14,922 nt of DNA from a virus (UHGV-0216241), one strand, 5' to 3'; counted from the stretch's first letter, positions 8,219 to 13,820 are shown. Notes: generated by a model from the letters alone, not told the origin. Numbers and translations: made by a program.

Positions 8219-8663
8219 CGATTTCTTCTAGCTGGCGGTCTATCTTGTCCTGTAATTTAATTTTTAATTCTAATGCATCCTGTGATTCGAATAATTCAAC
8301 ATAACTTGACGCGGGAATACTTCTTAGTACCTGTCGTAGTTGGTAGAAGTATTGGGATAAAGTTTGCTGTACTACTGCTACCGGAATTAGTTCTCCCGAT
8401 TGCTGGCGTAGTTCTAATTCTTTTAGGTCTGCTTCTGCTTCTAGTTTGCGTAGTGTGGCTTTATGGATCATTCCCTTCACATCACCATTACGCATTGGTT
8501 CGATTACGTTTGCTAGTAACCAGTCGTCTACTAATTTTTTAGGCCAGGTAATATCCAGTCCTTTGCCAGACCAGATACGGGATACAGTAGAATGCTCTAC
8601 GCCGAATCGGTCGGCGATTTCTTGCCATGAATATCTGGTTCCATCGTCTTTATTCTTTGCCAT
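8109..8663 (-). CDS. Terminase small subunit (HTH DNA-binding N-terminus, acidic C-tail)
   Basis: 184-aa ORF immediately upstream of the large subunit. The N-terminus has a helix-turn-helix-like stretch (SWQEIADRFGVEHSTVSRIW) and the C-terminus is acidic (EDDEDTNEGGEVDPTSEE). AGGAAA Shine-Dalgarno lies 7 nt upstream of ATG 8663. Confidence 0.75.
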   Translation of the reverse strand: MAKNKDDGTRYSWQEIADRFGVEHSTVSRIWSGKGLDITWPKKLVDDWLLANVIEPMRNGDVKGMIHKATLRKLEAEADLKELELRQQSGELIPVAVVQQTLSQYFYQLRQVLRSIPASSYVELFESQDALELKIKLQDKIDRQLEEIGGYEYEGTYEDQLPEDDEDTNEGGEVDPTSEETTTR

Positions 8664-8978
8664 GTGATTTCCTATTCACTTATTATTCACTTTCCATTGA
8701 TTGGTATTTTCTATCTATTTCGGTACTGATAGGTTTTATCTATAAATTTGTTTGTTTTATGTAAAATTTCTCACGTATTTTTATTATAACTCGCGGCCAA
8801 ACTTCGCATAGTTTGGCATATTCAGGAGAACCTACCGAAAGTCAAGGGAGTGATTCCATTTTTTTATCTTTTTTTTGATATAAAGCACAAATTGCACAAA
8901 ATCTTGATAGCTTCTACCTATCAGTACCGAAGGATACCATCATCCTATTATTCACTGTTTATGCATTGTTTATGCAAT
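8664..8978. other. Candidate packaging-site region (cos/pac), non-coding, upstream of the terminase small subunit
   Basis: ~315 bp with no credible ORF. Contains a 16-bp inverted repeat (8719-8734 TTCGGTACTGATAGGT and its reverse complement at 8916-8931), a perfect 8-bp-stem hairpin (8796-8817), two T8 tracts (8858-8865, 8869-8876) and a direct repeat TTTATGCA x2 (8953-8971). Location matches cos/cosB in lambda-like phages. Confidence 0.45.
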
Positions 8979-9365
8979 CTACTTGAGTATCACCATATTA
9001 CTAACGATTACATCACAACGATAAGAGATAGGCAGACCATCTACGGTACGGTACTGTAGGATCTCGTCGCGTAGTTCTCTTAGTCTGTTTAGGTGTGGTA
9101 GTTCGCTACCGTTGAATCTATCTAGTTCTCGTATGGGGTAATTAGTACGGCCTATGGTGAAGCGTGAGTAGTTTAATGTAATGTATTTATACTTAAGCGT
9201 TAGTGTATAGGTATCTATGAATAGCTCGTAACCGTCCTGTGTGATGATATGAGCGGTTATTAGCTTATCCTTGCGTGATGGTATGTATCCTGATTCCTGT
9301 CGGCCTGTGGTGCTTTCTATGGCCTTATACGTTCCATCAGGGAAGTGTAGGTAGATTGTATTCAT
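8979..9365 (-). CDS. Hypothetical protein (128 aa)
   Basis: ORF with an AGGAG Shine-Dalgarno upstream of ATG 9365. No recognisable motifs. Confidence 0.55.
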   Translation of the reverse strand: MNTIYLHFPDGTYKAIESTTGRQESGYIPSRKDKLITAHIITQDGYELFIDTYTLTLKYKYITLNYSRFTIGRTNYPIRELDRFNGSELPHLNRLRELRDEILQYRTVDGLPISYRCDVIVSNMVILK

Positions 9366-9371
9366 GGTGGG

Positions 9372-9398
9372 ATACTCCTATTGCATGTATAGGAGTAT
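9372..9398 (-). promoter_or_regulatory. Shine-Dalgarno-sequestering hairpin in the 5' leader of the 128-aa gene
   Basis: Perfect 10-bp inverted repeat ATACTCCTAT (9372-9381) and ATAGGAGTAT (9389-9398) with a 7-nt loop. On the minus-strand mRNA the AGGAG Shine-Dalgarno lies in the 3' arm, paired to ACUCCU. Confidence 0.45.
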
Positions 9399-9410
9399 TT
9401 AGGCAGGAAT

Positions 9411-9437
9411 AAAAAAGCCCACTGTGATTAGTGGGCT
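9411..9437 (-). terminator. Rho-independent terminator after the 232-aa gene
   Basis: Minus-strand hairpin with stem AGCCCACT / AGTGGGCT (9416-9423 and 9430-9437), a 6-nt loop, followed on the minus strand by a run of five U then AUU (9411-9415 on plus). Begins 7 nt after the stop at 9444. Confidence 0.7.
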
Positions 9438-9443
9438 AGTGGA

Positions 9444-10142
9444 TTAGTAAGAATGTATATAATGTGAGATTGGTATAGTACCGCCAGTGTAGGTACTAAT
9501 TTCTAATTCCTTCGCTACTAAATCAAGTATATCCAAGTGTTGCTGTATATCTTGATGTGGTGTTCCATTATTATCTAATAGGTTATGGGGAAAGAGTATA
9601 CTAATTTGTGCTATTTCTCCTACCATAGAAAGATCATTACCATGAATGTAATTTATTTTACGTTCATCGTGGTTATGTTCATGGTATATAGTGAACTTCT
9701 CATTACCTACATCATTTAGGCGACCATAACGCCAGCTAACTTGAAAGATACTACCCATATCATGTACAGTAATTGAATCGTCATTACTACCATCGATAGT
9801 AACATCAACAATATAATTACCGTGATTGATGCGGTAGTCTTCGATGCTTCCCGTTGGTAGATTTGGTTCGGATAGTTCTAGTACGGTTTCATTTTCATCA
9901 AAGCGATAGGAGGCTAATTCTATTGGTAGCATATTGTAAGTATCTAATTCATTATAGCTAATCATGCGGGTAGATTCATTCCATGTATTACCCATGAGTA
10001 CACCAACAAAATTACCGTTATGATCGCGGTGATCACCATCACCCATAATAAATGGAGTGTTACGCGTATACATTACAATCTTACCCGCACGACGAACAAC
10101 AATACCGTTAGTATGTTTAGTGAGAGTTACATCAAAAATCAT
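9444..10142 (-). CDS. Hypothetical His/Asp-rich protein (232 aa), moron-like cassette gene
   Basis: ORF with a GAGGAA Shine-Dalgarno 6 nt upstream and its own terminator. Has His-rich patches (GDGDHRDHNG, HEHNHDERK). No family recognised. Confidence 0.6.
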   Translation of the reverse strand: MIFDVTLTKHTNGIVVRRAGKIVMYTRNTPFIMGDGDHRDHNGNFVGVLMGNTWNESTRMISYNELDTYNMLPIELASYRFDENETVLELSEPNLPTGSIEDYRINHGNYIVDVTIDGSNDDSITVHDMGSIFQVSWRYGRLNDVGNEKFTIYHEHNHDERKINYIHGNDLSMVGEIAQISILFPHNLLDNNGTPHQDIQQHLDILDLVAKELEISTYTGGTIPISHYIHSY

Positions 10143-10164: not shown

Positions 10165-10187
10165 ATTATAGACCACTGTGATTAGTG
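10165..10187 (-). promoter_or_regulatory. Putative promoter -10 (TATAAT) plus a 15-bp repeat element upstream of the 232-aa gene
   Basis: Minus-strand TATAAT at 10170..10165, ~22 nt upstream of ATG 10142; the -35 is poor. The adjacent 15-mer CCACTGTGATTAGTG (10173-10187) is identical to 9419-9433 inside the downstream terminator. Confidence 0.3.
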
Positions 10188-11767: not shown

Positions 11768-11833
11768 TAGTAAATCCTTGTAGTGATTGTGTGAGGTGAT
11801 GTTTGATGTGAATTATTATAGCTATGATATTTA

Positions 11834-11870
11834 GTAATAGCTACTACTTTATTTGTGTAGTAGCTATTAT
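11834..11870 (-). promoter_or_regulatory. Stem-loop with 12-bp perfect inverted repeat between the 227-aa gene and the exported-protein gene; terminator or operator
   Basis: AATAGCTACTAC (11836-11847) and GTAGTAGCTATT (11857-11868) with a 9-nt loop. Sits right after the stop at 11876 and overlaps the -35 region of the TATAAT at 11814-11819. There is no clean U-tract on the minus strand. Confidence 0.4.
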
Positions 11871-11875
11871 TCTTC

Positions 11876-12559
11876 TTATACTACCTTATAGGCTTTAGTA
11901 ACAAGCTCTTTGAAGTCTTGCTCGTCGGCCTGTTTAGGATACTGCTGCTTGTACTCGGCGTAGTATTCCTGTGCTTTCGCGTTCATCTTCCCTTTCTGGT
12001 TTAGATGGAACTCATGACCGTTCCACTTCGCATTAAGCGGGTATTTTTTGCGATAGTCCTCACTATACGCCCGTAAAAACTCGTCAACGTCCGATAGTTC
12101 GGGATTCTTCTTAACCAACTGAATGTATACTTCATCCTTGAGTAATGCCGCTGGTAACTTCTTATTGATTACATTATAGGTTCTTCTTTCGTCCTTCTTG
12201 CTATCAACTATGACTACTTCGAATATCTTATTGCCGTTCGGCTTCGATGCTTTTTGTGGTATGGAAGCAGGAGAAGATACAGCCAGTGTAGAAAGCAGTT
12301 CCTCTACACTAGAGAAGCTACCAGACTCTTGTACAAGTGATTCTAATAGTTTCTTAGCTTCGTTTAGTCGCTCGGTACGTAGTGTGCTTACATAGTCCTT
12401 CACTTCGCCCAGGCGTTGAATGAGAGTGTCTAGTTCTTCTTCGTTGACGTTTGCCAGTGCATTGCGGCCTGTTGCGTCGGCAGTCAACATACCTACATGA
12501 AAATCATCATTAAGAATCGTACTGATCATTTTTGCGGTAATGCTTTTAATGCTTCCCAT
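11876..12559 (-). CDS. Hypothetical protein (227 aa), coiled-coil-like N-terminal half and Lys/Tyr-rich C-terminal half
   Basis: ORF with a GAGG Shine-Dalgarno 7 nt upstream of ATG 12559. No family recognised. Confidence 0.55.
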   Translation of the reverse strand: MGSIKSITAKMISTILNDDFHVGMLTADATGRNALANVNEEELDTLIQRLGEVKDYVSTLRTERLNEAKKLLESLVQESGSFSSVEELLSTLAVSSPASIPQKASKPNGNKIFEVVIVDSKKDERRTYNVINKKLPAALLKDEVYIQLVKKNPELSDVDEFLRAYSEDYRKKYPLNAKWNGHEFHLNQKGKMNAKAQEYYAEYKQQYPKQADEQDFKELVTKAYKVV

Positions 12560-12747
12560 AGTACAGCCTCATTTGGTTTTAACAGTAACTGAGTACAATC
12601 GGTTAGTTTAACTATATTTGCAAGTGGGATCTCCTTCAAAGTGTTTATCATCTCACTGGTAAGACCAAATTCACCTAGTAGATCTTCTTCGGAAAGTTTC
12701 CGTACTGTATCTATATAGAGTACGTTTAGCTCATGTAGATCATTCAT
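12526..12747 (-). CDS. Hypothetical small protein (73 aa)
   Basis: ORF whose start overlaps the upstream gene's stop (ATGA at 12744-12747), indicating translational coupling. Confidence 0.5.
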   Translation of the reverse strand: MNDLHELNVLYIDTVRKLSEEDLLGEFGLTSEMINTLKEIPLANIVKLTDCTQLLLKPNEAVLWEALKALPQK

Positions 12748-13022: not shown

Positions 13023-13063
13023 ATTAACACTACTAGTACATTTTCGGTACTAGTAGTGTTAAT
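13023..13063. repeat. Perfect 17-bp inverted repeat (palindrome) with 7-nt spacer
   Basis: ATTAACACTACTAGTAC (13023-13039), spacer ATTTTCG, then GTACTAGTAGTGTTAAT (13047-13063). Located 4 nt after the stop of the 97-aa gene. No adjacent U-tract on the minus strand. The spacer carries the recurrent TTCGGTACT motif. Confidence 0.6.
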
Positions 13064-13787: not shown

Positions 13788-13795
13788 AAACGATG

Positions 13796-13820
13796 AAGCC
13801 CACATTAAGTGGGCTTTTTT
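13796..13820. terminator. Rho-independent terminator for the plus-strand gene, overlapping the 3' end of the convergent minus-strand gene
   Basis: Stem AAGCCCAC / GTGGGCTT (13796-13803 and 13809-13816), 5-nt loop, then a T6 run ending at 13820. The last five codons (TKKPT) and stop of the minus-strand 178-aa gene are encoded within the hairpin and T-tract. Confidence 0.7.

Follow-up and report, generated by a model that had tools for sequence, protein, structure and literature searches.

A Putative T4-Type Late-Promoter Box Overlapping a Ribosome-Site Hairpin as a Candidate Temporal Gate in an Enterobacteriaceae Prophage Family

A conserved gene for a 128-aa protein, situated beside the presumed packaging site of a prophage family of Enterobacteriaceae, is preceded by a hairpin that encloses its ribosome-binding site (RBS) and by a CTAAATA box that runs into the 5′ arm of the same hairpin. 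We propose that hairpin and box together form a temporal gate of the type found at T4 gene e, I-TevI, and mobE, a reading that we consider somewhat better than even. Under this reading, transcripts that come in from upstream would most likely leave the gene untranslated, and only those begun at its own promoter could be read. The analysis was carried out on a 14,922-nt stretch of viral DNA (UHGV-0216241; hereafter the window), for which an earlier note, made from the sequence alone, had described a tightly gated gene guarded by a terminator and a hairpin. The elements that carry the argument are as follows.

10142–9444, minus strand: 232-aa open reading frame (ORF) from the ORF list; relatives have different genes here
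9446–9444, minus strand: stop codon (TAA) of the upstream 232-aa ORF, by direct reading
9437–9411, minus strand: intrinsic terminator with an 8-bp stem (5 G-C pairs), a 6-nt loop, and six T
9402–9396, minus strand: CTAAATA box, a candidate T4/Aeh1-type late promoter (−12 to −6) by sequence match
9398–9372, minus strand: RBS hairpin with a perfect 10-bp stem and a 7-nt loop
9390 (A), minus strand: predicted +1, the sixth base after the box by the T4/Aeh1 rule (PMC1524935, PMC3014915)
9379–9375, minus strand: Shine-Dalgarno sequence AGGAG, within the 3′ arm and 9 nt before the ATG at 9365–9363
9365–8979, minus strand: ORF of the putatively gated gene, encoding the 128-aa protein
8978–8664, minus strand: non-coding 315-nt gap with conserved blocks, the presumed cos/packaging region

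The terminator starts 6 nt past the stop codon of the 232-aa ORF, with the stem AGCCCAC(T)/(A)GTGGGCT at 9437–9416 and the six T at 9416–9411. It combines a G+C-rich stem-loop with a U run at the end of a unit, as an intrinsic terminator does, and reading, folding, and a terminator consensus scan of the window all recovered it where the earlier note had placed it. On the minus strand, ATTCCTGC lies between its T run and the CTAAATA box. The hairpin consists of ATACTCCTAT (9398–9389), the loop ACATGCA (9388–9382), and ATAGGAGTAT (9381–9372), and the same note was right that AGGAG sits in the 3′ arm of a perfect 10-bp stem. Sites of the AGGA/GGAG type are also used by other genes in the window. 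The note had asked for a folding calculation as a check on hairpin stability; when 9450–9340 was folded as RNA, exactly the terminator and the RBS hairpin formed, at −28.4 kcal/mol (z = −6.1), an energy that none of 200 shuffled sequences equaled.

The RBS hairpin alone was calculated at −10.9 kcal/mol at 37 °C. Across the family, the corresponding stems range from −10.5 to −12 kcal/mol, and the probability that the Shine-Dalgarno sequence is unpaired, P(SD unpaired), is predicted to be approximately 3e-4 at 37 °C in every member. By these models, the RBS would be sequestered on any RNA that carries the 5′ arm, which upholds the appearance of a tightly gated gene. When the start regions of the window were compared, structure of this kind over the RBS was found at the 128-aa gene only. 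An Rfam scan of the window gave nothing above the gathering score, the sole match being Trp_leader over the terminator (25.4 bits versus 41, E = 0.17). Two other perfect inverted repeats in the 15-kb window are longer than 10 bp. Length alone is therefore not overwhelming in a sequence of this size, and it is because the 10-bp repeat is conserved that we do not regard it as a chance occurrence.

Conservation among relatives is concentrated on the box and the two arms. Nine core pairs (9397–9389 with 9381–9373) are unbroken in all homologous loci found, and eight of them are invariant. The sole change replaces C-G with U-G in one locus (L053, C to U in the 5′ arm) and keeps the pairing; in all other copies, the arms TACTCCTAT and ATAGGAGTA are the same. 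In ten aligned loci, the block TAAATACTCCTATA and ATAGGAGTA are invariant. The hairpin loop, by contrast, varies in both sequence and length (5–7 nt), and the spacer to the ATG and the first codons vary freely. No compensatory changes were found in the stem across relatives, and covariation gives no support because the arms themselves are invariant; moreover, the Shine-Dalgarno sequence by itself constrains five bases of the 3′ arm, regardless of pairing. In place of covariation, thermodynamics, the contrast between arms and loop, and parallel devices at other genes carry the case for the structure.

The terminator follows a different pattern. In most relatives it occupies the same place, where four different stems occur (AGCCCAC.., GCCCC.., CCAGC.., and AAACCCAC..). 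Four unrelated stems in one position are good evidence that it is functional. It is absent, however, from the lineage formed by L001, L029, and the prophage of E. coli WGI31CT, and it must therefore be seen as an optional partner of the hairpin. The earlier view of terminator and hairpin as a joint guard thus stands insofar as both elements are real, and fails insofar as it made the terminator obligatory. Box and hairpin also stay intact where the 128-aa ORF is frameshifted or contains a stop codon (L020, L051, and L054–56). From these broken copies, the protein appears to be dispensable and the regulatory block to be kept, which fits a promoter that also serves downstream genes.

The invariant block does not begin with the stem but five bases before it, at (C/A)TAAATA. 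The box overlaps the first three bases of the 5′ arm; TAAATA is invariant across relatives, and the preceding base is C everywhere except in L020, which has A. Five unrelated sequences occur upstream in different lineages, all of which can be aligned from precisely the box onward, and the megablast match between the window and the E. coli WGI31CT prophage begins at 9403. A homology edge at this point is as expected of a unit with a −10-only promoter at its 5′ edge. In phage T4, the late promoter is TATAAATA at −13 to −6, an 8-bp, −10-like box without a −35 element, and the predicted late-promoter consensus of Aeh1 is CTAAATA from −12 (PMC1524935). From this match and the conservation of the box, we infer that CTAAATA at 9402–9396 acts as a late promoter. 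The earlier note had seen no room for a promoter between terminator and hairpin, a conclusion that does not hold for a T4-type late box, which needs 8 bp and no −35 element and is present here as CTAAATA.

A scan for sigma-70 promoters found none between the terminator and the gene and no overall excess of sites in the window. E. coli sigma-70 would not be expected to use TAAATA. A search for a late promoter in the cos gap was also unproductive, as the TTGAC-like hexamers there have no consistent spacing to any −10 element.

With +1 at 9390, two bases before the loop, a transcript is predicted to keep just 2 nt of the 5′ arm. The consequence of start position for access to the RBS was calculated by in silico folding.

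RNA 5′ end at 9520, 9410, or 9402: P(SD unpaired) 0.0003
RNA 5′ end at 9392 to 9388: P(SD unpaired) 0.32–0.42

Transcripts begun at the box are thus predicted to have a free RBS. The note had further claimed that expression would require both terminator read-through and hairpin melting; neither would be needed by RNA started at the box, which would lack the 5′ arm.

The same box recurs at other genes of the family. In the complete prophage of E. coli WGI31CT, (A/C)TAAATA starts 35–42 nt before 7 of the 41 start codons (at 35, 36, 37, 40, 40, 42, and 42 nt). Local shuffles of this prophage gave a mean of 0.50 boxed starts, and 0 of 20000 reached seven. The boxed genes comprise a membrane ORF following the integrase, the 128-aa gene, a tail-fiber gene, a tail gene, a holin-like gene, a GIY-YIG gene, and a lysozyme gene. 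A second representative genome has CTAAATA 15 times on the gene strand against once on the other, including five intergenic copies where 0.92 are expected (P = 0.002). Over the whole window, neither CTAAATAC nor TATAAATA is enriched; the signal is seen only once position relative to start codons is used. Three further occurrences in the window deserve mention.

1795–1789, minus strand: ATAAATA box, 40 nt before the ATG (1755) of a tail-fiber-like gene that runs off the window end
11869–11835, minus strand: 13-bp perfect hairpin, followed directly by CTAAATA at 11834–11828
9191–9184, minus strand: exact TATAAATA inside the 128-aa gene, over codons K58-Y59-K60-Y61

The box at 1795–1789 falls into the same spacing class as that of the 128-aa gene. 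The one at 11834–11828 has TATAAT 7 nt beyond it and lies 67 nt from the ATG of a lipoprotein gene. Within the 128-aa gene, no lineage departs from AAGTATAAATA at the DNA level even though adjacent synonymous sites vary, and the internal TATAAATA could be either a second box or a chance match. The window contains no plus-strand copy of the box from which RNA complementary to the 5′ arm might arise. The idea of a lineage-wide switch between CTAAATA and ATAAATA was discarded, since a single contig (L042/L059) has both.

Parallel arrangements were found at two further places in the family. In 8 of the 9 lineages examined, the junction that follows the tape-measure gene has a hairpin with a T-rich tail, then the box, then 19–27 nt, then an ATG; protein identity among eight of the nine is 62–100%. 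In the same phage family as the window, an e-like lysozyme gene (the product 33% identical to T4 e) and a divergent SegE-like GIY-YIG gene share a palindrome in which, on each strand, the 5′ arm holds the box and the 3′ arm holds the RBS, with arm sequences that differ from those of the 128-aa gene. With the arm search in viral contigs described below and the placement of boxes before start codons, these two arrangements make four independent lines of sequence evidence that the box is more than a resemblance.

The 128-aa gene adjoins the packaging site, as the earlier note had observed, being the upstream neighbor of the cos/terminase region. The 315-nt gap contains TGCATAA repeats, a GTACTGATAGG...CTATCA inverted repeat, and a GC-rich, GCGAGTTTTCGCCGCGA-like block, and it is followed by genes for TerS, a gpA-type TerL, a lambda-family portal, and the capsid. 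Where flanks are known, the 128-aa gene sits just upstream of the terminase genes, and in most loci no other gene separates it from the gap and the small terminase gene; L003, L004, and L025/L041 have extra ORFs between. Between the 128-aa gene and that for the small terminase, no minus-strand terminator was found. Transcripts from the box would consequently run on into the terminase genes, as expected if the promoter supplies the terminase operon as well. On the upstream side are small ORFs, several with signal or lipoprotein leaders. The 232-aa ORF has no Pfam, PHROG, PADLOC, or NCBIfam match. A 15-nt copy of the terminator core (CACTAATCACAGTGG) occurs at 10187–10173, and the ORF appears to have been inserted between two copies of the terminator, one broken and one intact.

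The 128-aa protein itself matched no family in four profile libraries. Its confident structural model (pLDDT 81.6) has a predicted β-rich N-terminal part and C-terminal helices, and no structural neighbors were found. Nine database homologues have 59–95% identity, and further copies in viral and metagenome contigs go down to 43%. Among the relatives compared for the hairpin core, the proteins are 44–96% identical. No member of the family was found in GTDB species genomes, and cultured phages gave neither a DNA match nor a match to the 128-aa protein. The best cultured-phage match of the window's TerL is to a 141-kb E. coli phage, at 37% identity.

The host assignment comes from neighboring sequence. 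A nearby 227-aa protein is 98% identical to an E. coli protein, with relatives in Enterobacter, Klebsiella, Cronobacter, and Leclercia, and the window from 8600 to 9403 has 89.6% identity to a chromosomal prophage of E. coli WGI31CT. This prophage, which occupies 117,657–150,157 of NZ_CM135810.1 and was found in 2 of 5426 complete E. coli genomes, is 32.5 kb long with 38.8% GC, is inserted in yegD, and begins with a large serine recombinase. Its 128-aa ORF is intact, and RefSeq annotation missed it. Like an autonomous temperate phage, it encodes an integrase and complete sets of head, tail, and lysis genes, and its T4-related genes encode the e-like lysozyme, the SegE-like nuclease, and a Gp30.7-like protein.

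In the gate as we picture it, RNA from the upstream genes would mostly be halted at the terminator, where one is present. RNA that reads through would carry both arms, its RBS would be locked in the stem, and the 128-aa protein would not be made; the locked structure on read-through RNA was obtained in silico, and a block on translation would be its expected effect. The (A/C)TAAATA at 9402–9396 would serve as a −10-only promoter of the T4 late type, from which RNA would start at approximately 9390, inside the hairpin. RNA begun there would be free of ACUCCU, its RBS would be open, and the 128-aa protein would be made; beyond the gene, this transcript would extend across cos to cover the terminase and head genes as well. 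Several points speak against such a gate: no gp55-, gp33-, or clamp-like protein was found in the family, the box is not enriched over the window as a whole, the stem gains no support from covariation, and, within the packaging operon, the lock is for no evident reason on this gene only, which is dispensable in some lineages.

An alternative that we grant a limited chance of being right dispenses with the promoter. Here the hairpin would be a plain constitutive throttle on translation, with the gene reached by read-through of the terminator, possibly by an antiterminated polymerase, and perhaps with ribosomes on standby at the A/U-rich CUAAAUA. This is essentially the model of the earlier note, and it agrees with a terminator and a hairpin that are real and stable, with a 128-aa gene on the same strand as all upstream genes, with the empty stretch between terminator and hairpin in the search for sigma-70-like promoters, and with scans that returned no gp55-like reader. 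A stem of −10.5 to −12 kcal/mol and an exposure of 3e-4 would nevertheless leave a conserved protein almost unexpressed, and the terminator is missing in one lineage. The throttle also leaves unaccounted for an invariant box outside the stem with homology starting at that box, the enrichment of boxes 35–42 nt before seven genes, and the composite of box and hairpin before the lysozyme and GIY-YIG genes.

The inverted repeat could instead be a binding site for a protein, either as a DNA operator that overlaps the promoter or as an RNA operator for a translational repressor, possibly the 128-aa protein itself. The arms are almost invariant in sequence rather than merely paired, without compensatory changes, and the repeat covers the predicted −8 to +19, where operators classically lie. 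There is also a precedent in I-TevI, which represses its own synthesis through an operator over its late promoter (PMC2988022). The half-sites, however, are 5, 6, or 7 nt apart and the loop is variable, an arrangement unfavorable for a rigid dimer or for an RNA-binding protein that reads the loop; in the sequences at hand, the fixed half-site distance of a dimeric DNA-binding regulator is not seen. The C to U change in L053 preserves G-U pairing in RNA and breaks symmetry in DNA, the 3′ arm is the RBS, and the hairpins of the lysozyme and GIY-YIG genes have different arms that yet again contain the RBS. A protein-binding palindrome is therefore unlikely as the explanation of the repeat, and the two functions can coexist, as in I-TevI.

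A T4-type promoter calls for a factor that reads it, and the family was searched for one. PHROG and Pfam scans of 40 non-structural ORFs of the family revealed nothing similar to gp55, gp33, or the clamp. All six-frame ORFs, both in the family loci and in the complete E. coli element, were also compared with a gp55 profile made from 115 sequences; the best score was 9.7 bits, compared with 296 bits for the T4 control, and we regard this match, which lies at the tail-chaperone position, as noise. The PGAP annotation of the complete E. coli prophage lists no sigma factor. Since no gp55-type factor was found, the phage cannot on this evidence be assigned to the T4 late-transcription system, even as its device appears to resemble that of T4 on every feature that can be read from sequence. 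We put forward only as a doubtful proposal that the prophage family runs its late, lysis, and accessory genes from (A/C)TAAATA, with the reader being either a new factor of its own or the late sigma of a superinfecting T4-type phage. In the former case, the specificity factor may have converged on the T4 late sigma or diverged from it beyond recognition.

The latter case, in which an incoming T4-type phage supplies gp55 and thereby switches on the boxed genes for piracy or defense, strikes us as very unlikely. It would bring together the T4-type boxes before seven genes, the failure to find gp55 in the element, the residence of the element in bacteria that T4-type phages infect, namely E. coli and further Enterobacteriaceae, and the e-like lysozyme, SegE-like nuclease, and Gp30.7-like protein. 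The GC content of the element, 38.8%, is far from that of the host and close to that of T4-type phages. Against dependence on a helper stand the full head, tail, and lysis set and the integrase, which are those of an autonomous temperate phage. T-even phages, moreover, degrade or silence cytosine-containing DNA, which counts against this reading. An unrecognized factor of the element's own would be the simpler answer, and rV5 is an autonomous phage with T4-late-like motifs and no gp55 (PMC3606486).

Last, an RNA thermometer, which the earlier note had listed among its options and which would release the RBS on a temperature rise, can practically be dismissed: the RBS does lie in a hairpin, but folding at 15–75 °C shows a perfect 9–11-bp stem without mismatches that has a ΔG of −8.7 to −10.3 kcal/mol at 45 °C, leaves the RBS unpaired at approximately 1e-3 at that temperature, and is still folded at 65–75 °C.

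The T4 gate with its promoter within an RBS hairpin is the textbook means by which a phage blocks synthesis of a late protein from early read-through RNA. To our knowledge, such gates have so far been described in T4-type phages only. The same combination of a box and an anti-Shine-Dalgarno arm is now seen in a lambda-like E. coli prophage without a visible T4 late sigma. If confirmed, this would point to a wider use, or a greater mobility, of both the device and the T4-type late promoter than has been assumed, and it would raise the testable question of what reads TATAAATA-type boxes in a prophage. Should the helper reading be true, the prophage would sense the late phase of an invader and exploit or abort it. 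In practical terms, the analysis flags a conserved 128-aa gene that is unannotated in E. coli WGI31CT and offers a simple motif for locating late promoters in this phage group.

How widespread the composite is outside the family was examined by searching 2.9 million viral contigs for exact copies of both arms. The search returned 31 contigs, only nine of which carry the 128-aa gene. In many of the others, TATAAATA, CATAAATA, or CTAAATA precedes the arms TACTCCTAT/ATAGGAGTA, and low-GC contigs have the composite TATAAATA/CTAAATA-CTCCTAT-loop-ATAGGAGTA-ATG, with the ATG 4–10 nt after the arms opening a gene for a GIY-YIG, HNH, or Vsr-like endonuclease. Pooled, the genes of these endonuclease-type contigs include those for a clamp, clamp loader, RegA, and sheath proteins of the T4 type, from which the composite would appear to be a standard part of T4-type genomes.

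Among known systems, the late operon of lambda resembles the present locus in its lambda-like packaging genes and in a terminator upstream of the cos-proximal late genes. It differs in that its model of Q-modified read-through has no RBS hairpin with an embedded box. Neither a Q- or N-like protein nor a qut- or nut-like site was found in the window or its relatives, where many ORFs have no assigned family. Dependence on antitermination and toxicity of an over-expressed product, both suggested in the earlier note, are neither favored nor disfavored by the analysis. Phage rV5 provides a likeness of another kind, having a T4-late-like −10 motif before its late genes without gp55, gp33, or gp45 (PMC3606486). 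It is, however, a large virulent myovirus, its motif is TggTAaAAtA, and no RBS hairpin has been reported for it.

The closest layouts are those of T4-type phages, in which a late promoter combined with an RBS hairpin is established for e, I-TevI/II/III, segB, and mobE (PMC3014915, PMC2988022), and the same design has been reported for soc and other T4 genes and for mobE of Aeh1 (PMC3014915; PMC2988022). The homing-endonuclease genes I-TevI/II/III and segB of T4 and mobE of Aeh1 share the arrangement of promoter and RBS hairpin with the 128-aa gene (PMC2988022), and the box of Aeh1 is likewise CTAAATA (PMC1524935). Unlike their products, the 128-aa protein has no nuclease family or fold, and its gene is unlike a roaming homing gene because its position is fixed near cos.

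Gene e of T4 offers the most direct comparison. Read directly, its leader is TATAAATACCTTCTATAAATACTTAGGAGGTATTATG, and both systems have a TATAAATA-type box over the 5′ arm and enclose the Shine-Dalgarno sequence in the 3′ arm, with TATAAATACCTTCT..AGGAGGTATTATG in T4 e against CTAAATACTCCTAT..ATAGGAGTAT at the 128-aa gene. The present phage is a 32-kb, integrase-carrying Enterobacteriaceae prophage with lambda-type terminase and portal rather than a T4-type myovirus, its device is usually preceded by an intrinsic terminator, and the gated product would be the 128-aa protein and not a lysozyme; the e-like lysozyme of the same phages has a device of its own. For T4 e, RNA started upstream gives approximately 100-fold less lysozyme (PMC3014915). 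Upstream RNA that is silent and box-started RNA that is open are thus documented for gene e (PMC3014915), and the same pair of states is predicted by folding for the 128-aa gene.

An intact copy of the 128-aa ORF, together with its (A/C)TAAATA box, a candidate T4-type late promoter, and its Shine-Dalgarno-hiding hairpin, is carried by the prophage of E. coli WGI31CT (locus L065, 20039-20425; NZ_CM135810.1), where the RefSeq annotation omits the ORF and shows only a featureless 750-nt stretch. In relatives L020, L051 and L054-L056, copies of the gene have lost 7 nt, gained an internal stop or undergone frameshifts, and the box and hairpin are unbroken in all of these loci. The source label of L054 is human gut metagenome. 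A box-like sequence also lies within the gene itself:

9184-9191, minus strand: exact sequence match to TATAAATA within the 128-aa gene

The DNA of AAGTATAAATA, inside the gene, is invariant across all lineages; synonymous sites on either side of it vary. The TATAAATA match could represent a second promoter-like box, situated approximately 520 nt 5' of the small terminase gene, or could reflect codon chance.

The window has several further features of note, among them one small ORF that is a candidate for the factor that recognizes the boxes:

10173-10187, minus strand: second occurrence of the terminator core, 15 nt (CACTAATCACAGTGG), matching 9433-9419 exactly and lying upstream of the 232-aa ORF
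11812-11869, minus strand: perfect 13-bp hairpin directly 3' of the 227-aa ORF stop, followed immediately by CTAAATA and, 7 nt on, a canonical TATAAT
12526-12747: 73-aa ORF overlapping the start of the 227-aa ORF
13023-13063: inverted repeat, 17 bp without mismatch and a 7-nt loop (ATTAACACTACTAGTAC / GTACTAGTAGTGTTAAT), in the gap between the 97-aa and 65-aa ORFs
13795-13817: bidirectional terminator (GAAGCCCAC-loop-GTGGGCTT), between the 178-aa ORF (minus) and the 71-aa ORF (plus)

The 73-aa ORF gave weak, sub-threshold matches to FlhD-like proteins (Pfam E 0.006, NCBIfam E 0.002), and its product is a possible small transcription factor that might read the boxes. At 11812-11869, the distance from the CTAAATA to the start of the lipoprotein gene is 67 nt, and in the E. 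coli relative the matching position reads TTAAATA. No other perfect palindrome in the window is as long as the repeat at 13023-13063. On the gene strand this repeat lacks a trailing T run, and it could therefore function as an operator, as a processing site or in an origin-like role. Among plus-strand ORFs of the window, only the 71-aa ORF bordering the bidirectional terminator is convincing as a gene. In relatives lacking the 232-aa ORF, the terminator comes straight after the 69-83-aa gene; this arrangement, combined with the terminator-core copy upstream of the ORF, suggests that the 232-aa gene was inserted here, splitting or duplicating the terminator.

The cos-proximal region, 3' of the 128-aa gene, contains its own set of features:

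8930-8978, with the gap aligned to it in relatives: two TGCATAA(A)C copies immediately 3' of the 128-aa gene stop
Beyond these copies in the gap, window and relatives: inverted repeat GTACTGATAGG...CTATCA
Also beyond these copies in the gap: GC-rich block, GCGAGTTTTCGCCGCGA in relatives and GCGAAGTTTGGCCGCGA in the window
L025 8644-9414, and L041 (both relatives): additional 256-aa ORF, inserted so as to separate the 128-aa family gene from the small terminase gene

The TGCATAA(A)C copies, inverted repeat and GC-rich block are candidates for the sites at which terminase binds and cos is cleaved. The 256-aa ORF has Cys-rich motifs and a stretch that is possibly GIY-YIG- or T5orf172-like, and the cos-proximal region looks like a hotspot for endonuclease-like insertions.

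At 32.5 kb and 38.8% GC (E. coli is ~51% GC), the complete relative (L065 10515-40807 plus L066 13658-15864) is a prophage inserted in yegD, adjoining mdtABC; of 5426 complete E. coli genomes, only 2 carry it. The prophage's tail genes are annotated as gene-transfer-agent-like (DUF2163, DUF6950), and its PGAP annotation names no repressor or replication protein. Among relatives, L048 has a match to a GTA-type 3TM holin and L041 encodes a 645-aa ATPase-like ORF. L048 and the E. coli element also share a compact divergent arrangement:

L048 17627-17680 and E. coli element 30786-30830, both strands: single palindrome serving two divergent genes, a T4 e-like lysozyme and a SegE-like GIY-YIG nuclease

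On either strand, the order is box, anti-Shine-Dalgarno arm, loop, Shine-Dalgarno arm and ATG. By this predicted layout, the palindrome is a bidirectional version of the device of T4 gene e, to which it is likened, with the difference that here one palindrome would work in both directions.
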